Assembly: GCA_029938185.1 (NCBI GenBank)
Contig: JAOZVK010000001.1
Location: forward strand, 1-43,990
DNA: 43,990 nucleotides
Direction of reading: 5' to 3'
Source of the DNA: Bacteroidales bacterium
GTDB lineage: Bacteria > Bacteroidota > Bacteroidia > Bacteroidales > JAOZVK01
The number at the start of each line of letters is the position of its first letter. Position 1 is the first letter of the stretch. Both the position numbers and the translations under genes were made by a program. Below the pieces are notes generated by a model. It saw only the letters and a list, made by a program, of their open reading frames with translations. It had not been told where the DNA came from and searched no databases. Shown here one piece after another: positions 7,223 to 43,990 of the stretch.

Positions 7223-7348
7223 GGGCTACATGTAAGAAGTTGGACAGTCTTGTTTATCAGGTGTTTCGTAACATGGTAAAAATCAATCCTGTTAATCCTG
7301 TAAATCCTGTCAAAAAATAAAATAATGTCCAACACTATACGTGTAGCC
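7223..7348. repeat. MITE-like element with terminal inverted repeats GGCTACAYGT..GTTGGACA
   Basis: GGGCTACATGTAAGAAGTTGGACA ... TGTCCAACACTATACGTGTAGCC. The core CAATCCTGTTAATCCTGTAAATCCTGTCAAAAAA is nearly identical to the copy at 31407-31533. Confidence 0.8.
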
Positions 7349-31407: not shown

Positions 31408-31533
31408 GGCTATCCGCGTAAAGTTGGACAGTGTTGTTTATCAGGTATTTTGTAACAGGATAAAAATCAATCCTGTTAATCCTGTAAATCCTGTCAAAAA
31501 AATAAAATAATGTCCAATACCAAACGTGTAGCC
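31407..31533. repeat. MITE-like element with GGCTAC..TTGGACA terminal inverted repeats (second copy)
   Basis: GGGCTATCCGCGTAAAGTTGGACA...CAATCCTGTTAATCCTGTAAATCCTGTCAAAAAA...TGTCCAATACCAAACGTGTAGCC. It begins on the last base of the TAG stop at 31405-31407. Confidence 0.8.
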
Positions 31534-35224: not shown

Positions 35225-36661
35225 ATGAAAAAAGAAAATTTAAAAAATCAGGAAGAAGACAAAACTTTGCTTGAAGGAAGTGAAAATTTGACAGATAAAA
35301 ATAATAATGAAATTGTAGAGGAAGAAAAAAAAACTTTGAAAGACAAGATTATTAATCAAAAAACAGCCTTGCTTGTTGCCGGTGGCGGATTGATTGCAGG
35401 GACTGGATTTGCAGCAGGAACAAAGCAAAATGATGAAATACTTATTGATACCGACAATGACAACATTGCTGATGCTGTTTTGATAGACGAAAACGAAGAT
35501 GGTATTTATAACACTGAAACCGAAATTGAGGAGATAGAGGAAGTTGAGGAAGTTGAAACCGAACCCGAAATTGAAACAAACAGCGAAAACTCAAATAGTC
35601 ATACTTTTAATACAGATACAGCACCTCACACAAGTGAAGGAACGGTTACTGATGATATGTCGTTTTCGGAAGCATTTGGGGCGGCAAGAACTGAGCTTGG
35701 TGCCGGTGGTGTATTTGAGTGGGACGGTCAAGCTTACAGCACTTTTTATGCTGAAGAAGTTGACGAAAACATGAATCCAACAGTTGATTATACAACTACA
35801 AACGACCCTGAATATATTAATAATAACAATTCTGAAAATGATAATGAAAATACCGAAATAAATAACAATACAGATAATGACACAGATATAGATGATAACA
35901 CAGAATTAGAAGATGATACATTTGATGTTGAAAATATAGATGAAATAATTGACAACAGTGTTGTAGATACAGGAACGGTGGAATACGATGGTGAAGTGTC
36001 GAATGATATTCCTGATGATGTTTCTAATACCGAACTTGATAATCACAATAACGAATTTTCCAGTTCAAATGATAATTTTGACGATGAAGGTGGTGATGAC
36101 ATAAATCTAACATTTAACTTTACAAACAATACTGAAAATAACAATACTGAAAATAATAATATTGTAAATAACAATACTGAAAATAATAATATTGTAAATA
36201 ATAATATTGAAAATAATGATATTGAAAATAATGATGTTATAATTATTGATAATGAAAACACTGAAATAAATAATAATACTGTTGAAATTGAAAACACAGA
36301 AATAAACAACAATACTACTGAAAACTCAGATAATAATACAAGTAATGAAACAGATACAGACGATATTGTGGACTTAGATAATGATGTAGAGTTAGATGGT
36401 GATTTAGAAATAGGTGATGGTGCAGAATTAGATGATGATGTAGAGTTAGATGGTGATTTAGGATTAGATGATGATGTAGTTGAAGTTGAAGACATTGATG
36501 AAATAATCGGCAACGGTGTTGTAGATACAGGAACAGTGGAATATGACGGTGAAGTATCAAATGATGTTACTGATGATGTGCCAGATACCGAACTTGATAA
36601 TCACAACGACGACCTTGCAGCTTTAGATGATGATTTTGATGATATGAACGACTGGGCATAA
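35225..36661 (+). CDS. extremely acidic D/E/N-rich repeat protein with one predicted TM segment
   Basis: TM-like TALLVAGGGLIAGTGFAAGT. Conserved-looking block DDMSFSEAFGAARTELGAGGVFEWDGQAYSTFYAEE. A ~47-aa unit is duplicated (..IDEII.N.VVDTGTVEYDGEVSND..D.ELDNHN..) and there are N/E/I microsatellite-like tracts. Confidence 0.7.
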   Translation: MKKENLKNQEEDKTLLEGSENLTDKNNNEIVEEEKKTLKDKIINQKTALLVAGGGLIAGTGFAAGTKQNDEILIDTDNDNIADAVLIDENEDGIYNTETEIEEIEEVEEVETEPEIETNSENSNSHTFNTDTAPHTSEGTVTDDMSFSEAFGAARTELGAGGVFEWDGQAYSTFYAEEVDENMNPTVDYTTTNDPEYINNNNSENDNENTEINNNTDNDTDIDDNTELEDDTFDVENIDEIIDNSVVDTGTVEYDGEVSNDIPDDVSNTELDNHNNEFSSSNDNFDDEGGDDINLTFNFTNNTENNNTENNNIVNNNTENNNIVNNNIENNDIENNDVIIIDNENTEINNNTVEIENTEINNNTTENSDNNTSNETDTDDIVDLDNDVELDGDLEIGDGAELDDDVELDGDLGLDDDVVEVEDIDEIIGNGVVDTGTVEYDGEVSNDVTDDVPDTELDNHNDDLAALDDDFDDMNDWA

Positions 36662-36665
36662 ATTA

Positions 36666-36698
36666 AACTTTGACAAAGTTTAAAACTTTGTCAAAGTT
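36666..36698. repeat. REP-like 33-nt palindrome
   Basis: AACTTTGACAAAGTT-TAA-AACTTTGTCAAAGTT. Confidence 0.9.
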
Positions 36699-36856
36699 GG
36701 AGTTACATAGTTTAACAATGTAAATTTATAACCGTTTGCAATATAATATTACATTATAATGGTCTCATAAATTATTATAGCATTCATAAAGTCTCGGTGT
36801 AGTTAATAAAAAAACTATGCAGTTAAAAAAAGAGCCACACCAAGACATTTCTTACA

Positions 36857-36888
36857 AGTTTGACAAAGTTCAAAACTTTGTCAAACTT
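36857..36888. repeat. REP-like palindrome (slightly degenerate)
   Basis: AGTTTGACAAAGTT-CAAA-ACTTTGTCAAACT. It supplies the spurious TTG start at 36860. Confidence 0.85.
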
Positions 36889-36910
36889 AAATAAACAAAA
36901 TCAAAAAATT

Positions 36911-37414
36911 ATGAAAGTAAAATGTTCAAAATGTGGTAGTATTTTGTTAATTGCCGAAAACAAATTACCAAAAAATAAAAAAAAGGCAATGGTAAAATGT
37001 AAAAAATGTAACCATTCAATTGTATTTACAATTCCTAATGCCGGTGAGCCAGAAGGTGAAAAAACTGAAATTGGCGATGCTAATGAACTAAAAATTCAAA
37101 ATGTAAAACTTATTGAAACAAAAACCGGTAAAGAATATATCTTAAAAATTGGAAAAAATATTATTGGAAGAAAAACAGATATTTCTATTGAGGGAGATAA
37201 ATACATTAGCCGTTTACATTGCCTTGTGGAAATGAAAAAACAAACTTGGGGCATCGAACTCACAATAAGCGATGATGGAACAGAAACAGGAAAGCCGAGC
37301 ACAAATGGAACTTTTTATAAAGATGAAAAAATATCAAAATTTGATAAAATTGTGCTAAAAAATGGTGACAAAATACGTGTAGGACGCACCGATTTAACTG
37401 TAAAATTTTATTAA
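36911..37414 (+). CDS. MJ0042-type zinc-ribbon plus FHA domain protein
   Basis: MKVKCSKCGSILL..VKCKKCNHSIVF zinc ribbon. FHA signature IGRKTDISIEGDKYISRLHC...STNGTFYKDEKI...LKNGDKIRVG. Confidence 0.85.
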   Translation: MKVKCSKCGSILLIAENKLPKNKKKAMVKCKKCNHSIVFTIPNAGEPEGEKTEIGDANELKIQNVKLIETKTGKEYILKIGKNIIGRKTDISIEGDKYISRLHCLVEMKKQTWGIELTISDDGTETGKPSTNGTFYKDEKISKFDKIVLKNGDKIRVGRTDLTVKFY

Positions 37415-37522
37415 GGTCTTCTATCTATTTATAGTTGCTTACGCATTAGTACAAAGACAATTTAATCAGGAAATTATGAATAAGTAAATGTCGAAAAAAT
37501 TTTGTAACAGTACTTAATTGAA
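37415..37522 (+). repeat. GGTCTTCGACC-family element, full-length
   Basis: GGTCTTCTATCTATTTATAGTTGCTTACGCATTAGTACAAAGAC...GTCGAAAAAATTTTGTAACAGTACTTAATTG starts on the base after the TAA stop at 37412-37414. Confidence 0.8.
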
Positions 37523-37533
37523 CAATTAAAATC

Positions 37534-37683
37534 GGGGCTAACAATAGTATCATCTTTACGGATAGCCTACTGTCGGCGTGGCTCAAAGCCACACCGACAG
37601 TTTTAGGACAAGACAGTAAGAGAACAAACAGGTGAAAAACACCTGCCGAGCGCAATGAAGTATTCAACTTTATGTGGGTAGCC
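37534..37683 (-). repeat. composite GC-rich repeat with two hairpins, ending ..AACTTTATGTGGGTAGCC
   Basis: Hairpin CTGTCGGCGTGGC-TCAAA-GCCACACCGACAG (37570-37600). Hairpin CAGGTG-AAAAA-CACCTG. The tail GAGCGCAATGAAGTATTCAACTTTATGTGGGTAGCC recurs at 42148-42205 and 43875-43931. Confidence 0.75.
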
Positions 37684-37733
37684 AAACAGGCTATGCTATT
37701 ATTAACATTGTGAAAACTTTTAAATAATTTAAA

Positions 37734-38495
37734 ATGAATATGAGAAAAATCTTATTAATACTTTTTTTTACTATTTTTTTGCAACAAACTAATGCACAAA
37801 AAAAATATGTTTTAATAGCAGGAGTTGCAGATTATAAAGATGATAGGCTGGATTTGCACTATTGCGACGACGATGCATACCGTTTTTATGCATATATGAA
37901 AAGTACAAAAGGTGGAAGTGTGCAGGACAATAATATTGCTATACTGGTAGACGAGGCTGCAACACGTAAAAATATTTTAATGACTATGCATAAAATTTTT
38001 TCTAAAGCAGGAAAAAATGATATGCTTATTTTTTATTTTTCGGGACATGGCGGAAAAGGCTATTTTTGCCCATACGAAACAAGTAAAAACCCTAAAAGTT
38101 TGTTGTTACACAACGATATAAAAAAAATATTCAAAAAACATCCTGCAAAAAGCAAAATTGTATTTGGTGATGCATGCCATTCGGGTAGTATTTTTGAAGG
38201 TACAAGCCACACTGTACCAAATGGAACCGCTGTAAAAACAAATGTTGTAATATTAATGTCATCAAAATATAGCGAAACCTCACAAGAAAATAAAAAACTC
38301 AGACAAGGTACTTTTTCTTATTATCTTTTGCGTGGATTACAAGGTAAAGCAGATAGAAATAAAGATAAAAACATAACTTTACAAGAACTTTTTCCATATA
38401 TTAAAGCAAATGTTCTTAACTTTACAAAAAATAGGCAAACACCATTTATTGAAGGTAAAGCACCTGCAAATATGATAATTGGTAGATTAAAATAA
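37734..38495 (+). CDS. caspase-like (peptidase C14) protease with N-terminal signal peptide
   Basis: Signal peptide MNMRKILLILFFTIFLQQTNAQ. Catalytic His motif FYFSGHGG and Cys motif GDACHSG in the canonical order. Confidence 0.85.
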   Translation: MNMRKILLILFFTIFLQQTNAQKKYVLIAGVADYKDDRLDLHYCDDDAYRFYAYMKSTKGGSVQDNNIAILVDEAATRKNILMTMHKIFSKAGKNDMLIFYFSGHGGKGYFCPYETSKNPKSLLLHNDIKKIFKKHPAKSKIVFGDACHSGSIFEGTSHTVPNGTAVKTNVVILMSSKYSETSQENKKLRQGTFSYYLLRGLQGKADRNKDKNITLQELFPYIKANVLNFTKNRQTPFIEGKAPANMIIGRLK

Positions 38496-38526
38496 CTTTG
38501 ACAAAGTTCCAAACTTTGTCAAAGTT
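38494..38526. repeat. REP-like 33-nt palindrome overlapping the caspase stop codon
   Basis: AACTTTGACAAAGTT-CCA-AACTTTGTCAAAGTT. Its first two bases are the AA of the TAA at 38493-38495. Confidence 0.9.
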
Positions 38527-38565
38527 AAAAGTTAAAAAGTTGAAAAATCAATAAAAATAAAAATT

Positions 38566-38724
38566 ATGTTAGCACTAAAAGGAATATACGAAAATGGAAC
38601 AATAAAATTTGATAAACCAATAAATATAAAAAAAGCTGTAAAAGTTATTGTTATATTTATTGATGAAGAAATACAACTAAACTATCAAACAGTTGATACC
38701 AATAAAGAACATATTGCAAAATAA
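38566..38724 (+). CDS. small DUF104/AF2212-like antitoxin-type protein (52 aa), not in the supplied ORF track
   Basis: MLALKGIYENGTIKFDKPINIKKAVKVIVIFIDEE resembles the IYENGV.KP...L.EG..V.I pattern of small antitoxin-like proteins. No toxin partner is adjacent. Confidence 0.45.
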   Translation: MLALKGIYENGTIKFDKPINIKKAVKVIVIFIDEEIQLNYQTVDTNKEHIAK

Positions 38725-38845
38725 CCGGAAACATTTTTATACTCCGATTGAAACAAAAAAGTAACATTTAATACAATATACAATTTGTAAGTTTGTACAA
38801 GCTTTTCAGATAAAACAAAAGTCAAAAATATTTAATTTAATAATT

Positions 38846-40144
38846 ATGATTAACGATAAAGTGTTAAACTACAAAATTACTGTCTCGATAGGTAAAGGCG
38901 GTATGGCAGAGGTATTTAAAGCCGAACATCAAACTTTTGAGGATAGAAAAGTGGCAATAAAAATTCTCGACCCTGTGCTTGCTCGTAAAGAAAATATTGC
39001 GACACGATTTGTGAACGAAGCCAAAATTATGGCTAAATTGGAGCATCAGAATATTGTAAAAGTGGTTGATTTTGAGAAACGCACAGATATGCTCGCCATA
39101 ATAATGGAACTTCTCGAAGGAAAAAGCCTGACAGGATATATAAAACAAAAAGGAAAACTGCAAAAACAAGAAGCCATAGAAATTTTCAAACAAGCTTTGA
39201 GTGCTTTTGAATTTGCCCACAAACACAATGTAGTTCACCGTGATGTAAAACCCTCAAATATTTTTATAGAGACCCAAAAAGGCAATAATGTTAAAATACT
39301 TGATTTTGGTATAGCAAAACTATTAGAAAGCAATGCAAACGACACAAACACAGGTGCACAAATGGGAACACCTGTTTATATGAGTCCCGAACAAGTAAGA
39401 GACAGCAAAAATATTGACAGCCGAAGTGATATATACTCTTTGGGCGTAGTATTGTATTATATGCTTGCCGGAAAACCACCTTATGACAGTACAAGTCTCT
39501 CGAATTTTGATATTTACACAAAAATTGTAAATGAGCCGGTACCTGAACTGAGCACTCACCCCGAAATTAACAAAATAATAAAAAAAGCAACCGCCAAAAA
39601 ACCTGCTGATAGATACCAAACATGCAATGAGTTTGAAAAAGCACTCGAAGTAAACTTTGACAAAGTTCCAAACTTTGTCAAAGTTGAAACAAACAACGAA
39701 GATGAAACCCTAATAGACAACGAACAAAAAAACTTTGACAAAGTTCCAAACTTTGTCAAAGTTGAACCAAACGAAGATGTAACCCTAATAGACGACCCCG
39801 AAACTGAACTTTGGGACAAAATAAAAAACAAAACAGATATACAACTGTTTAAAAACTATTTGCAAAAATACCCAAATGGAAGATATAAAGAACAGGCAAG
39901 TAAAATAATTGATGCTAAAAACTTTGAAAAACAAAAAAACTTTGACAAAGTTCCAAACTTTGTCAAAGTTGAAACAAACAACGAAGATGAAACCTTAATT
40001 GACGACCCCGAAACCGAACTTTGGGACAAAATAAAAAACAAAACAGACATACAACTATTTAAAAACTACTTGCAAAAATACACAAATGGAAGATATAAAA
40101 AACTGGCAAGTAAAATAATTGATGCTAAAAACTTTGAAAAATAA
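38846..40144 (+). CDS. Hanks-type Ser/Thr protein kinase followed by 70-aa tandem repeats, terminated by a TAA inside a repeat
   Basis: GKGGMAEVF, VAIKIL, HRDVKPSNIF, DFGIAK and GTPVYMSPE. From 39653 the repeat units begin. The stop at 40142-40144 is CAA in the paralogous repeat copies. Confidence 0.9.
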   Translation: MINDKVLNYKITVSIGKGGMAEVFKAEHQTFEDRKVAIKILDPVLARKENIATRFVNEAKIMAKLEHQNIVKVVDFEKRTDMLAIIMELLEGKSLTGYIKQKGKLQKQEAIEIFKQALSAFEFAHKHNVVHRDVKPSNIFIETQKGNNVKILDFGIAKLLESNANDTNTGAQMGTPVYMSPEQVRDSKNIDSRSDIYSLGVVLYYMLAGKPPYDSTSLSNFDIYTKIVNEPVPELSTHPEINKIIKKATAKKPADRYQTCNEFEKALEVNFDKVPNFVKVETNNEDETLIDNEQKNFDKVPNFVKVEPNEDVTLIDDPETELWDKIKNKTDIQLFKNYLQKYPNGRYKEQASKIIDAKNFEKQKNFDKVPNFVKVETNNEDETLIDDPETELWDKIKNKTDIQLFKNYLQKYTNGRYKKLASKIIDAKNFEK

Positions 40145-40526
40145 AAAAACTTTGACAAAGTTCCAAACTTTGTCAAAGTTGAGACAAGCAACAATGATGA
40201 AACCTTAATTGATGACCCCGAAACCGAACTTTGGGAACAAATTAAAAATAAAAACGATATACAACTATTTAAAAACTATTTACAAAAATACCCAAATGGA
40301 AGATATAAAGAACAGGCAAGTAAAATAATTGATGCTAAAAACTTTGAAAAACAAAAAAACTTTGACAAAGTTCCAAACTTTGTCAAAGTTGAGACAAGCA
40401 ACAATGATGAAACCTTAATTGATGACCCCGAAACCGAACTTTGGGAACAAATTAAAAATAAAAACGATATACAACTATTTAAAAACTACTTGCAAAAATA
40501 CCCAAATGGTAGATATAAAAAACTGG
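39653..40526 (+). repeat. coding tandem repeat, 210-bp unit (one partial, three full, one partial), each unit starting with the REP-like palindrome
   Basis: Palindromes at 39653, 39731, 39938, 40148 and 40358. Spacing is exactly 210 bp for the last three. The unit encodes NFDKVPNFVKVE..ETLIDDPETELW..IKNK.DIQLFKNYLQKYPNGRYK..A.KIIDAKNFEKQK. Confidence 0.9.
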
Positions 40527-41308
40527 CAATAATTGAACAACCATCTGAGAATATAAAAAACTATACAGAAACTGTAAAAAGTGTAAGTTTTGATATGAAA
40601 GCTGTAGAAGGCGGAACATTCCAAATGGGAAGTAACGAAAACAGTGATGAAAAACCAATACACAGCGTAACAGTCCACAGTTATAATATGGGTAAATACG
40701 AAGTAACACAAAAACTATGGAAAGCAGTAATGGACAACAACCCAAGCCATTTTAAAGGAGACAATAGACCTGTTGAACAAGTTAGCTGGGATGATATACA
40801 AAAGTTTCTTAAAAAGCTAAACAAAATGACTAGTAAAAACTATCGCTTGCCCACAGAAACAGAATGGGAATATGCAGCCAGTGGAGGTAGCAAAATCCAA
40901 TCAACAATAGGTCGCATTTTGGAATGGAGGGAACATGTAGCTAGGGGTAGCACACACCAACAAAAATGGGCAGGTACAAATAGAAAAAGCTTGCTTGGCT
41001 CGTATGCTTGGTATAGCGACAACAGTGGCAGTAAAACACACAATGTAGGAACAAAACGTCCAAATAAACTTGGAATATACGATATGAGCGGAAACGTATG
41101 GGAATGGTGTCAAGACCATTGGCACAGTAATTACAACGGTGCACCAACAAATGGAAGAGCATGGACAAGTGGTAGTAGTTCGCGCCGTGTTATTCGTGGC
41201 GGCAGTTGGTATTACAACGCCAGTGGTTGTCGTGTGGCTTATCGGTACAGCTACAGTCAGGGCGAGCGTGCCTACAACTTGGGCTTTCGCCTTGTGTTTG
41301 TCCCGTAG
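40490..41308 (+). CDS. FGE-sulfatase (SUMF1/formylglycine-generating-enzyme-like) domain; same frame as the kinase ORF and open back to 40145
   Basis: GGTFQMGS..., YNMGKYEVTQKLW, RLPTETEWEYAASGG, GIYDMSGNVWEWCQD, RVIRGGSW and NLGFRLV. Confidence 0.85.
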   Translation: MQKYPNGRYKKLAIIEQPSENIKNYTETVKSVSFDMKAVEGGTFQMGSNENSDEKPIHSVTVHSYNMGKYEVTQKLWKAVMDNNPSHFKGDNRPVEQVSWDDIQKFLKKLNKMTSKNYRLPTETEWEYAASGGSKIQSTIGRILEWREHVARGSTHQQKWAGTNRKSLLGSYAWYSDNSGSKTHNVGTKRPNKLGIYDMSGNVWEWCQDHWHSNYNGAPTNGRAWTSGSSSRRVIRGGSWYYNASGCRVAYRYSYSQGERAYNLGFRLVFVP

Positions 41309-41334
41309 TTTAATGAATGCTTTTCTGGAAGCTC

Positions 41335-41352
41335 AACTTTGACAAAGTTCAA
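41335..41352. repeat. half REP-like palindrome (left arm only) just upstream of the RAYT-like gene
   Basis: AACTTTGACAAAGTTCAA with no matching right arm. Confidence 0.7.
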
Positions 41353-41386
41353 ACCTAAAATTTAAACCAACAAACTAAATTATAAG

Positions 41387-42004
41387 ATGAAATATTATAC
41401 AGAACAATTAGAACCCGATAAATATTATCACATTTATAATCATGCAGTAGGAAAACTGAATTTATTTATAAACAATGATAATTATGATTTTTTTCTTAAA
41501 AAATATTCACAACATATTTCACCTGTTGCCGATACTTTTGCTTATTGTTTAATGCCAAATCATTTTCATTTTGCTGTGCGTATAAAATCTGGTTCGAGTA
41601 TTTCAAGTTTGACAAAGTTTCAAAACTTTGTCAAAGTTCGCCATCGCAGTATAGAATTTTTTGTCAGTAAACAATTTTCTAATTTATTCAGCTCATATTC
41701 TCAGTCGTTCAACAAACAACAAAACCGAAGGGGTAGCCTGTTTGAGCGTCCTTTTAAAAGATTACATATAATTGACGATAAATATTTTCGTTCAATAATA
41801 CATTATATTCATTATAACCCTGTTCATCACGGTTTTGTTGATGATTTACGCAATTGGAAATATTCATCTTTCGAGAGTTTTTTTTCAGATAAAGCAACTC
41901 AACTAAAACGTGAAGAAGTAATAAATTGGTTCGATAATAAAGAAAATTTTTATGAATTTCATAAAAAAGAAATAGATGAAAAATTGATATTAGAGCTTGA
42001 ATAA
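41387..42004 (+). CDS. Y1 HUH transposase, IS200-like / REP-associated tyrosine transposase (RAYT) type, carrying an in-frame palindrome insertion
   Basis: YHIYNHAVGKLNLF, HUH motif MPNHFHFAV, GSLFERPFKR and catalytic-Tyr region HYIHYNPVHHGFV. Confidence 0.75.
   Translation: MKYYTEQLEPDKYYHIYNHAVGKLNLFINNDNYDFFLKKYSQHISPVADTFAYCLMPNHFHFAVRIKSGSSISSLTKFQNFVKVRHRSIEFFVSKQFSNLFSSYSQSFNKQQNRRGSLFERPFKRLHIIDDKYFRSIIHYIHYNPVHHGFVDDLRNWKYSSFESFFSDKATQLKREEVINWFDNKENFYEFHKKEIDEKLILELE
41606..41638. repeat. REP-like palindrome inside the RAYT-like coding sequence
   Basis: AGTTTGACAAAGTT-TCAAA-ACTTTGTCAAAGTT, translated as SLTKFQNFVKV between the HUH motif and the Tyr motif. Confidence 0.9.
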
Positions 42005-42038
42005 ATTTTTATTTAACTTAATAATCAACCTAATAATC

Positions 42039-42071
42039 AACTTTGACAAAGTTTAAAACTTTGTCAAAGTT
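42039..42071. repeat. REP-like 33-nt palindrome downstream of the RAYT-like gene
   Basis: AACTTTGACAAAGTT-TAA-AACTTTGTCAAAGTT. Confidence 0.9.
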
Positions 42072-42147
42072 TAAACAGACAAACTAAATATTAACTGTAT
42101 TTTGCTAAATCTAAATCAAATATTGGCTCAGAGAATAAGCAGTCAGA

Positions 42148-42205
42148 GGCAGGTGAAAAAATACCTACAGAGCGCAGTGATGTATTCAACTTTATGTGGA
42201 TAGCC
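42148..42205 (+). repeat. GC-rich repeat tail module (CAGGTG hairpin plus ..AACTTTATGTGGATAGCC)
   Basis: GGCAGGTGAAAAAATACCTACAGAGCGCAGTGATGTATTCAACTTTATGTGGATAGCC matches 37628-37683 and 43875-43931. Confidence 0.7.
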
Positions 42206-42348
42206 TTTTCAATTAATAAGTAGATAGCTATATAAAAATGTCACTTTTATTATTAATATTATTCTGTTTATCAGGTGTAAGCAAACTTTTAACTTTTATC
42301 TTTTAACTGTTCACTTACTTAGGTACAACTTTAATATGCCATAAAAAA

Positions 42349-43320
42349 ATGAATAACGAAATACTAATATACAAAACCGAAGACGGTAAAATAAAAATAG
42401 AAACTCATTTTGAAAATGAAACTGTTTGGCTAAATATAGAGCAAATAGCAGAGTTATTTCAAAAATCACGCTCTACTATAAATGAGCATATTCTTAATAT
42501 TTATAAAGAAGGTGAGCTTGAACAAGAAGAAACAAAGAGAAAAATCGGAATTTCCGATTTTTCTACTAAACCCACAAATTTCTATAATCTTGATGTTGTA
42601 ATTTCTGTAGGTTACCGAGTTAAATCGCAAATAGGTGTTCATTTTAGAAAATGGGCTACTAGCATAATCAAAGAATACATGATAAAAGGCTTTGCCATGA
42701 ATGACGAATTATTAAAACAAGCTGGCGGAGGCAATTATTTTGATGAACTATTGGCTCGTATTAGAGATATTCGTTCTTCTGAAAAAGTTTTTTGGCGTAA
42801 AGTCTTGGATATATATGCTACAAGCATAGATTATGACCCCAAATCAGAACATTCGATATTGTTCTTTAAAACAGTTCAAAACAAAATGCACTGGGCATCG
42901 CATGGCGAAACTGCTGCCGAAACCATATATCGTCGTGTTAATTCAGAAGAAAAAAATTTAGGATTGACAAATTTTAAAAAAGAAATTCCAACACAAAAAG
43001 AAACTGAAATAGCTAAGAATTACTTAGTAGAAAATGAATTGAATATGCTTAACCGAATGGTAACGGCCTATCTTGAAGTTGCAGAAATTCAAGCACTAAA
43101 TCAAATACCAATGTACATGGGTGATTGGATTAAACAATTGGACTCTTTTCTAACAATGACAGGAAAAGAGGTACTGCAACATTCCGGTACAGTAAGTCAT
43201 AAACAAGCAATTGAAAAAGCTCATACAGAATATAATAGGTACAAGGAGAAGGTAAAAAACAGAATATCTCAAGTTGAAAAGGATTTTATGAAACAAATTG
43301 AAAACAAAACGAAAAGATAA
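42349..43320 (+). CDS. RhuM-family (virulence protein RhuM-like) protein
   Basis: ETVWLNIEQIAELFQKSRSTINEHILNIY, YNLDVVISVGYRVKS and FRKWATSIIKEYMIKGF, typical of the RhuM family. Confidence 0.75.
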   Translation: MNNEILIYKTEDGKIKIETHFENETVWLNIEQIAELFQKSRSTINEHILNIYKEGELEQEETKRKIGISDFSTKPTNFYNLDVVISVGYRVKSQIGVHFRKWATSIIKEYMIKGFAMNDELLKQAGGGNYFDELLARIRDIRSSEKVFWRKVLDIYATSIDYDPKSEHSILFFKTVQNKMHWASHGETAAETIYRRVNSEEKNLGLTNFKKEIPTQKETEIAKNYLVENELNMLNRMVTAYLEVAEIQALNQIPMYMGDWIKQLDSFLTMTGKEVLQHSGTVSHKQAIEKAHTEYNRYKEKVKNRISQVEKDFMKQIENKTKR

Positions 43321-43587
43321 AAAAAATAAACGAATTGACTGCTTGTTCTCTTGCACAGAGCAACGCCTTAAACAAGTAATGTTGTTGCATATTGATAAAG
43401 ATAATTTTTTCAATAAAATGATAGATTATCAAATAAGCGAATTAAAACTTGGCTTATACAATATTGAAACAATTTGAGGAAAATCAAAAAAAATGTTGTG
43501 GTTTGAAACATGTCACATATTCTTACTTATATTCGTTGCATGTTGTTATATTTTAAAAATTGTAATGAAAATCAATAACATAACTGC

Positions 43588-43631
43588 CTACTGTCGGCGT
43601 GGCTTCAATGCCACACCGACAGTTTTAAACA
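43588..43631 (+). repeat. GC-rich hairpin module (second copy)
   Basis: CTGTCGGCGTGGC-TTCAAT-GCCACACCGACAG, with the same stem (including one C/A mismatch) as 37570-37600. Confidence 0.75.
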
Positions 43632-43701
43632 GGCAAAATGTAACAAACCAGTACAACTTTTTGAAATTTCCGAAATACTAAAAAAATGAAGCTACAAATA
43701 A

Positions 43702-43869
43702 AACAACCTTCAAATATCAGCTCTTTTTGAACGAGATAAGTCTGTTATTTCAAGGCATATAAATAATGTTTTTAAAGAACAGGAATTAGAAGGAAATTCA
43801 ACTGTTGCAAAATATGCAACAGTTCAAAAAGAGGGCGAAAAAAAAATTATCAGAAATATTGATTTTTGG
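43702..43869 (+). pseudogene. N-terminal fragment of a second RhuM-like gene, with no start codon, truncated by a repeat
   Basis: The open frame NNLQISALFERDKSVISRHINNVFKEQELEGNSTVAKYATVQKEGEKKIIRNIDFW parallels residues ~28-85 of the gene at 42349. Homology stops where the repeat at 43875 begins. Confidence 0.45.
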
Positions 43870-43874
43870 TCAGC

Positions 43875-43931
43875 GGCAGGTGAATACACCTGCCGAGCGC
43901 AGTAAACTATCCAACTTTACGTGGGTAGCCC
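43875..43931 (+). repeat. GC-rich repeat tail module (third copy)
   Basis: GGCAGGTGAATACACCTGCCGAGCGCAGTAAACTATCCAACTTTACGTGGGTAGCCC. Confidence 0.7.
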
Positions 43932-43990
43932 ACAAGCCATCGCCGTCAGGCTAACACATAACTATCTATTATTTAACATATAACATTGTT

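Follow-up and report, generated by a model that had tools for sequence, protein, structure and literature searches.

Background

Repetitive extragenic palindromes (REPs) and the tyrosine transposases associated with REPs (RAYTs, or TnpAREP) have been studied almost wholly in Proteobacteria, where a GTAG guide tetranucleotide and species-specific REPs are the rule. The E. coli TnpAREP and its REPtron, in which REP hairpins are clustered around the RAYT gene, were reportedly the subject of work by Ton-Hoang and by Messing in 2012. In Bacteroidetes, three subclasses of these enzymes are on record, namely 1.2, 2.4 and 2.6 of the TnpAY1 classification (Quentin 2018, PMC6006769). Subclass 2.4, which corresponds to RAYT Group 4 (Bertels 2017, PMC5581495), has Bacteroidetes members, a mean length of ~194 aa, an HuH motif of the form NH[IFV]H, and a hypervariable insertion between strand beta3 (the HUH strand) and helix alphaC that carries in-frame copies of the REP, i.e. 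REPs inside RAYT genes have already been published (PMC6006769). Subclass 2.6, which corresponds to RAYT Group 5, comprises mostly Bacteroidetes, and its REPs were described as having "atypical secondary structures" (PMC6006769). Published work also covers REPs located within open reading frames (ORFs) and others that furnish a stop codon (Di Nocera 2013, PMC3733652), as well as perfect-palindrome REPs that are processed by the cognate TnpAREP (Corneloup 2021, PMC8266576).

Here we report a computational analysis of a stretch of 43,990 nucleotides from a Bacteroidales bacterium (NCBI GenBank assembly GCA_029938185.1, contig JAOZVK010000001.1, positions 1 to 43,990), hereafter called the window, in which copies of a 33-nt palindrome are clustered around a gene for a RAYT-like protein (41387..42004, plus strand). 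We estimate at roughly 0.78 the probability that this locus represents a REPtron belonging to a RAYT clade of Bacteroidota. The evidence consists of the repeats themselves, the stability of their hairpins, the fold and motifs of the protein, an upstream, internal and downstream layout of hairpins that recurs throughout the family, and the co-variation of REP type with the sequence of the RAYT.

The 33-nt palindrome and its hairpin

The element comprises two inverted arms of 15 nt, AACTTTGACAAAGTT-N3/4-AACTTTGTCAAAGTT, and is present between 36666 and 42071 in ten full copies plus a single half copy. When AACTTTGACAAAGTT-N(2-6)-AACTTTGTCAAAGTT was searched for exactly, eight perfect 33-mers were returned, at 36666, 38494, 39653, 39731, 39938, 40148, 40358 and 42039, while the count of the exact 33-mer in 100 shuffles was 0. 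A relaxed search, which allowed up to two mismatches per 15-mer arm, found 21 arms against 0.58 expected, all of them inside 36666-42071, and thereby added three sites to the exact set. The first of these, 36856-36888, has one change in each arm (C3G in arm 1 and G31C in arm 2), and the two changes are compensatory, so that the 15-bp stem is retained. The second, 41605-41638, which lies within the RAYT gene, has a single G·G mismatch and a 4-nt loop, and the third is a lone arm at 41335-41349. Folded as single-stranded DNA (ssDNA), the full copies form a 15-bp stem with a 3-nt loop at -14.0 to -15.0 kcal/mol (z -6.0 to -8.7), the copy inside the RAYT gene folds at -11.5 kcal/mol, and no significant ssDNA fold was obtained for the half copy. 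The G+C content of the window is 25-30%. In length and in stability the 33-nt element falls within the short (20-40 nt) stable hairpins by which canonical REPs are recognized. In searches of the window against Rfam no family reached its gathering score, and E-value scans of the REP region yielded only spurious matches of the miRNA type.

An earlier note, made from the letters of the window, had listed eleven clustered copies of this palindrome with loops of 3-5 nt. The sites are real, but two of them start at 36856 and 41605 instead of 36857 and 41606, and the loops measure 3-4 nt. Likewise, the ten full copies and the half copy stand, but five of them are units of one coding tandem array; there are therefore ~7 independent sites, and the count of 11 is inflated. 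The confinement of the palindrome to 36666-42071 was reproduced by the exact and the mismatch search, neither of which found a copy elsewhere in the window, and the transposase gene is indeed bracketed by a half copy upstream (41335) and a full copy downstream (42039). The palindrome had further been called unusually long and perfect; its 15-bp stem is perfect, but REPs that are perfect palindromes have been published before (PMC8266576).

With respect to genes, 6/11 copies are located within ORFs, in frame, and the majority are hence not extragenic. Around the RAYT gene, the lone 15-nt arm (41335..41349) lies 37 nt 5' of the start codon, the internal copy (41605..41638) is read in frame as residues S74-V84 (SLTKFQNFVKV) between the HUH strand and helix alphaC, and a full hairpin (42039..42071) follows 34 nt 3' of the stop codon. 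The other in-frame copies are found in a single kinase gene, to which we return below. As to the remaining copies, the full hairpin at 36666..36698 begins 4 nt past the stop of an ORF for an acidic repeat protein (35225-36661), the copy with the compensatory pair change (36856..36888) lies 23 nt 5' of 36912, the probable ATG with which a zinc-ribbon/FHA gene starts, and the first two bases of the full copy at 38494..38526 complete the TAA stop of a caspase-domain gene (37734-38495).

Analysis of 33 distinct arms reveals that each arm is itself largely self-complementary: 5.6 of the 7 possible pairs within an arm are formed on average, vs 2.0 in shuffles, and at least 6 internal pairs are present in 64% of the arms vs 0.2% of the shuffles. 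The unit can thus be written as a-b-a'-loop-a-b'-a', i.e. an imperfect 15-nt palindrome present in two inverted copies that together form one long hairpin. The consensus of the arm is A-R-M-Y-Y-Y-N-N-N-R-R-R-K-T-T. The length of 33 nt equals 11 codons, and on either strand two of the three frames contain no stop, which is why insertions can be tolerated in surface loops or linkers of proteins.

The RAYT-like protein

The gene at 41387..42004 encodes a protein of 205 aa with the HUH motif PNHFHFAV (H59/H61) and the tyrosine motif YIHYNPV (catalytic Tyr Y140), both invariant across 24 aligned homologues. It matches the NCBIfam equivalog REP_Tyr_transpos (NF047646) with an E-value of 2.5e-17. The sole significant sequence match in the PDB is E. 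coli TnpAREP (4ER8), in whose alignment the tyrosine motifs coincide and F119 stands opposite W94. An AlphaFold model built from the alignment (pLDDT 92.8, pTM 0.89) has 4er8_A as its top Foldseek match (E 2.2e-8, TM 0.72), with TnpA of IS608, IS200 and ISDra2 far behind (E >= 1.3e-3, TM ~0.55). In this model the REP-encoded residues form a short helix (76-85) between beta3 (59-66) and alphaC (89-112). The modelled fold supports the protein being RAYT-like rather than an IS200 TnpA.

The ranking of these folds bears directly on the alternative that we are dealing with an ordinary autonomous transposase of the IS200/IS605 type, whose two flanking palindromes would be the ends of an insertion sequence (IS). 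A weak match to Pfam Y1_Tnp and the presence of hairpins on both sides of the gene could be read in this way, but the top fold match is TnpAREP and not the TnpA of IS200 or IS608, the flanking hairpins are identical in sequence to the dispersed solo copies and do not constitute distinct left and right ends, and the upstream element is merely a half copy. In addition, the 44-kb window contains one copy of the RAYT gene, no tnpB was found near it among the window ORFs, and the family is missing from phage and viral collections and nearly so from plasmids. A classical IS200/IS605 element is therefore largely refuted by the fold, the identity of flanking and solo hairpins, the single gene copy and the lack of tnpB, and we regard this alternative as very improbable.

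We found more than 3,000 homologues of the protein, essentially all in metagenome bins of Bacteroidota. Some are labelled "REP element-mobilizing transposase RayT" by JGI. The sole match in an annotated isolate is a 43%-identical homologue from Aureibacter, which has the tyrosine motif YIHQNP, is encoded on a megaplasmid and is labelled "hypothetical protein" by PGAP. No 33-nt hairpins were found at this megaplasmid homologue, and Aureibacter was consequently dropped as a candidate cultured model. The earlier note's remark that such an arrangement is not a standard annotation in Bacteroidota agrees with the PGAP label, though JGI names some members RayT, and the score of the present RAYT below the curated cut-off (see below) belongs to the same annotation gap. 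Neither the palindrome nor the RAYT protein was found in viral contigs and phage records, and the distant Aureibacter protein was the only plasmid match to the family. The carriage is probably chromosomal, not phage or plasmid, and this distribution fits a vertically inherited, domesticated enzyme (PMC5581495).

Layout of homologous loci

We analyzed 80 metagenomic loci with RAYT homologues of 43-67% identity, which were scanned for hairpins with a stem of >=12 bp and <=2 mismatches. A hairpin is present within 300 nt upstream of the RAYT gene in 58/76 loci, within 300 nt downstream in 50/77, and inside the gene in 55/80, and 74/80 loci have at least one hairpin in one of these three positions. 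The background rate, taken from 300-nt windows located more than 600 nt from the gene, is 10.8%, and hairpins adjoining the RAYT are thus enriched ~6-7-fold. The prevailing form is 15 bp + 3 nt + 15 bp = 33 nt, as in the window. The identification of the protein as a RAYT-type HUH/Tyr transposase, by its motifs and by the preference of its fold for 4ER8 over IS200 and IS608, and the REPtron-like layout, found in the window and in other genomes alike, are both as the earlier note had proposed, and the enrichment at the 80 loci supports that interpretation.

The sequence of the hairpin varies by locus (e.g. AGACCTGACAGGTTT, AACTTTCCAAAAGTT, AAACCTCCAAGGTTT, AACCCTTCAAGGGTT and others), and this variation follows that of the protein. 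REP type co-varies with RAYT sequence (Spearman 0.21 between RAYT identity and REP-arm identity, Mantel p 0.003), and REP-arm identity climbs from 0.57 to 0.89 with growing similarity of the RAYTs. Of the internal copies, whose median position is +227 nt, 42/49 agree in reading phase and encode x-L-x-G/K-F-x-N/T-L-x-G/K-L. The median identity between internal and flanking copies is 0.76 within a locus vs 0.50 between loci, and 37% of the within-locus pairs reach an identity of at least 85%, vs 3% of the pairs between loci. Lone 15-nt arms are rare (16/224) and mostly occupy a position immediately upstream of a RAYT gene, like the one at 41335 in the window and those in L027, L043 and L056. In L043 (880-1320), from an Aequorivita bin, we observed 5' of the RAYT gene an array with a period of 114 nt and one lone arm (AACTTTGTCAAAGTT) per unit.

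The exact 33-mer across Bacteroidota

A scan of one genome per species revealed the exact 33-mer of the window in at least 96 stretches from many genera and families, including Flavobacterium, Aequorivita, Moheibacter, Capnocytophaga, Spirosoma, Runella, Saprospiraceae, Draconibacterium and Bacteroidales bins. Among the matches listed, the copies in other genomes are mostly intergenic, often at gene ends, and a RAYT homologue adjoins the palindrome in 5/96 stretches. The same 33-mer stands beside RAYT homologues in L016, L017, L027, L043 and L056, and also in L101, L109, L135, L138 and L140. Some copies are read in frame in real proteins, namely in the linker of a TPR-SpoIIE protein (L011, L013), in the ATPase domain of a histidine kinase (L051) and in a Type ISP restriction enzyme (L081). 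L011 (1100-1620) and L013 (1290-1810), from two bins of Bacteroidota, hold orthologous genes for a TPR-SpoIIE phosphatase with the REP at the same codon. The alignment is 84% identical overall, 30/30 bases of the REP arms are identical, and within the REP the loop alone differs. Identity of the arms above the coding background suggests that the DNA itself is under constraint or is being homogenised.

Constraint of this kind would also be expected if the palindrome were mainly a host cis-element (an operator, a hairpin for transcript ends or mRNA stability, or a supercoiling site) that is conserved for that role and has a secondary link to the RAYT. Such a reading could draw on the identity of the 33-mer in so many genera and families, on the intergenic location of most copies elsewhere and their frequent position at gene ends, on the near-perfect palindrome in each arm, which resembles an operator for a dimer, on the lone arms just 5' of RAYT genes, and on the REP arms of the orthologues described above. 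The enrichment of hairpins next to RAYT genes and the co-variation of REP type with RAYT, on the other hand, tie the element to the transposase, and copies use both of the stop-free frames within unrelated proteins. On the strand that the adjoining genes occupy, no T-run lies 3' of the copies, and the copy at 36856 has compensatory changes that save the long hairpin while they break the palindrome internal to the arm. On balance, we consider a mainly host-serving palindrome unlikely, and note that a host role and RAYT-driven spread may coexist. The reading of the REPs as terminators was rejected, for they were flagged as such solely on the strand opposite the genes.

In a Saprospiraceae bin (GL114) three stretches (L045, L072, L080) have the palindrome inside a longer repeat with identical flanks (cgttttcagcac ... 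atagctaaaata), which indicates that in some genomes it is carried within a larger element.

Points against a REPtron of this clade

A number of observations weigh against the assignment of the locus to a clade of RAYTs with the 33-nt hairpin as cognate REP. Canonical REPs have a 5' GT[AG]G guide, which is missing here; the element begins with AAC, and no conserved motif appears in the flanks of 106 non-redundant copies (<=0.16 bit per position). The Trp of the W-Q motif is replaced by Phe (F119) in 24/24 aligned homologues. The protein scores below both curated cut-offs, with 63.1 bits vs 80 for NCBIfam NF047646 and 16.9 bits vs 23 for Pfam Y1_Tnp (PF01797). The internal copy is the most degenerate of the copies in the window, and copies of a locus's own type are sparse at a distance of more than 600 nt from the RAYT (11 in 312 kb, i.e. 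~1 per 28 kb). Identical 33-mers are paired with RAYTs that are just 50-66% identical, which makes any co-evolution loose. Finally, the enzymatic activity of the clade is presumed by analogy with characterized relatives.

The missing guide and the altered motif may be two sides of the same departure. In E. coli TnpAREP, the Trp of the W-Q motif has been linked to the recognition of GTAG (PMC6006769); with Phe at this position throughout the clade, recognition must differ, which is consistent with REPs that have no GTAG.

A more far-reaching version of the REPtron reading holds that the RAYT clade is spread over the whole phylum Bacteroidota, that the GTAG-less 33-nt element is its cognate "mini-REPIN", and that the internal in-frame copy is a conserved functional part and not an accident. 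We regard this version as possible, yet rather doubtful. The copy between beta3 and alphaC could serve as an autoregulatory site, or it could be a master copy that is protected and undergoes concerted evolution with the flanking ones. If this version is true, the hairpin would be recognized in a manner unlike the guide-tetranucleotide mode of the characterized TnpAREP and IS200 enzymes.

A possible mechanism

If the locus is a REPtron, the presumed substrate of the RAYT is the 33-nt perfect palindrome folded in ssDNA as a hairpin with a 15-bp stem and a 3-nt loop. By analogy with TnpAREP from E. coli, S. maltophilia and Marinomonas, the RAYT would bind this hairpin in its folded state where ssDNA is available, e.g. 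at replication forks. Cleavage followed by rejoining via a Tyr-DNA intermediate, as in the TnpAREP mechanism (PMC8266576), would then seed and maintain copies, preferentially near the RAYT's own gene. One such insertion would have landed in the beta3/alphaC loop of the RAYT itself, and another in the linker that joins a Ser/Thr kinase domain to an FGE-sulfatase domain, where a 78-nt and subsequently a 210-nt duplication would have produced five copies. The features specific to this clade would be the local seeding, the tolerance of 11-codon in-frame inserts, and the concerted evolution of internal and flanking copies. Binding and cutting of the 33-nt hairpin by the RAYT, together with the cleavage site and any benefit to the host, are inferred.

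The kinase/FGE gene and its coding tandem repeat

The five in-frame copies outside the RAYT gene are carried by a gene at 38846..41308 (plus strand), for which the ORFs and Pfam matches indicate a Ser/Thr kinase domain, a linker of repeats and an FGE-sulfatase domain. The linker contains a coding tandem-repeat region (39652..40529, plus strand) with a period of 78 nt (x1.9) followed by a period of 210 nt (x3.9) at 93% matches, the latter unit corresponding to a protein repeat of 70 aa. The first REP (39653..39685) is located directly past the kinase domain, the second (39731..39763) is its duplicate at the 78-nt period, and the other three (39938..39970, 40148..40180 and 40358..40390) each lie in a 210-nt unit. 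Ordinary tandem duplication of the coding unit explains how one REP insertion was amplified to five copies.

All five copies (39653-40390) are read as NFDKVPNFVKV, and the recurrence of one peptide within a 70-aa repeat might suggest that the repeat is a protein-coding motif of a repeat protein, with the DNA palindrome as an incidental by-product. The same DNA is, however, non-coding at 36666, 36856 and 42039, its reading frame is a different one in the RAYT, where it yields SLTKFQNFVKV, and in other genomes, where it yields TLTKFxTLSK, and the REP DNA is conserved where the adjoining coding DNA is not. This idea, which is refuted by the non-coding copies and by the copies in other frames, deserves practically no credence.

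The kinase and FGE ORFs constitute a single frame that is interrupted by a lone TAA at 40142-40144, just 5' of the REP at 40148. At position 40142, a contig from another sample (L098) also has TAA, and a contig from yet another sample (L097) has CAA, there at the contig start within the repeat. The TAA could reflect a pseudogene, a polymorphism or an ambiguity of the assembly. Three contigs, L097, L098 and L099 (GCA_029940435.1, GCA_029935775.1, SRR21545381), belong to the same organism and align to positions 39792-43990 of the window. Such contigs from other assemblies begin within the 210-nt array, and one stops exactly at the end of the window; their starts indicate that the repeats fragment short-read assemblies.

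Other repeats and genes in the window

We observed a second family of repeats, "TAAGGTCTTCGACCTATTTAATGTTGCTTA", which is unrelated to the RAYT palindrome. Its members, of ~30-47 nt each, occur on both strands, typically just past gene ends (2539, 12404, 13912, 15524, 15639, 16519, 16749, 16870, 20433, 21960, 27606, 29512, 33178 and 37401), and contain a small AGGTC-TTC-GACCT hairpin. A 49-nt repeat (ACCTGCCGAGCGCA..GTATTCAACTTTATGTGG.TAGCC) is present at 37635-37683, 42157-42205 and 43882-43930 with 86-88% identity, and a GC-rich 13-bp hairpin (CCTAC-TGTCGGCGTGGC-loop-GCCACACCGACA-G) is present in two intergenic regions, at 37568-37605 and 43588-43625; for these two elements there was no Rfam match even at E<=1. 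Two copies of an 86-nt direct repeat, 92% identical, are located 24 kb apart (7237-7322 and 31421-31506).

The segment 34657-43320 is rich in genes of the signalling or conflict type, with Pfam matches to HEPN, zinc-ribbon/FHA, caspase (Peptidase_C14), Ser/Thr kinase-FGE and RhuM. The acidic protein encoded at 35225-36661 (478 aa), for which no Pfam match was found, has an extremely high content of Asn, Asp and Glu, and its ORF is made up of tandem repeats of 15, 18, 36 and 45 nt.

Comparison with known systems

In the literature we found no AT-rich, GTAG-less REP type of nested palindromes, nor one that is identical across genera and families of Bacteroidota. We likewise found no account of a near-constant upstream, internal and downstream triad with a fixed phase, of the F-for-W signature, or of a REP whose copies multiplied together with a coding tandem repeat. 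Searches with sequence strings of the palindrome and of five sister types returned nothing relevant, and for RAYTs or REPs in Flavobacteria and Bacteroidota only the study of Quentin 2018 and a generic REP-finder paper came up. The clade departs from the proteobacterial pattern in four ways, i.e. by a hairpin without a guide, by nested two-fold symmetry, by conservation across genera and families, and by a copy inside the enzyme gene in most members. The 205-aa protein and a 33-nt oligonucleotide make a compact and experimentally easy pair for the question of how Y1 HUH enzymes choose a substrate without a guide.

The closest solved fold is that of the E. coli TnpAREP YafM (4ER8), whose REPtron comprises REPs and bacterial interspersed mosaic elements (BIMEs) (PMC8266576). 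The two systems have in common an HUH motif with a single catalytic Tyr, and short hairpins that flank the gene and are dispersed in the chromosome; the gene is chromosomal and in single copy in E. coli and probably so here. They differ in that the elements described here have no 5' GTAG guide and a perfect 15-bp stem without a bulge, their arms are themselves palindromes, one copy lies in frame inside the gene, and the equivalent of Trp94 is Phe.

Among the subclasses known from Bacteroidetes, 2.4 is similar in its beta3/alphaC insertion carrying an in-frame REP, and the NHFH of the present protein fits NH[IFV]H. When compared by published motifs, subclass 2.4 has WQ and YIxNNP, whereas the present clade has F-x and YIH[YF]NP; the published REPs of 2.4 are rich in G+C and have a single or double GT[AG]G foot, whereas those described here have no GTAG. 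The strings AAAGTT, AAGGTTT and AAGGGTT, by which the present family is typified, are absent from every REP in Table S1 of Quentin 2018. With subclass 2.6 the clade shares the restriction to Bacteroidetes, REPs without the canonical GTAG, and a conserved Ser-containing segment past the Tyr motif (WKYSSFESF here), and the 43%-identical relative from Aureibacter has a tyrosine motif like that of 2.6. The REPs listed for 2.6 (e.g. GCTGGCGCGAGC...), however, are GC-rich and unrelated, and its insertion is located between alphaC and beta4 instead of beta3 and alphaC.

The nested symmetry of the element is reminiscent of REPINs, as in both cases two inverted, imperfect short palindromes combine into one long hairpin, and positions that are unpaired within an arm pair between the arms. 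The spacer is here reduced to 3 nt and the whole unit to 33 nt; REPINs, the hairpin-forming REP doublets attributed to Bertels and Rainey in 2011, are said to be much larger. Rickettsia palindromic elements, reportedly described by Ogata in 2000, are likewise said to be far longer than 33 nt. With these elements and with intragenic REPs (Di Nocera 2013, PMC3733652) the palindrome shares its in-frame occurrence in functional ORFs and the provision of stop codons by REP ends, and it differs from them in that the insert has been further amplified within a coding tandem repeat. It thus exemplifies how a DNA repeat becomes protein sequence, first as an 11-codon insert tolerated in a linker and then by tandem amplification. 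Taken together, the arrangement belongs to the REP/RAYT systems as a Bacteroidota variant of which little has been described, and does not constitute a new kind of system.

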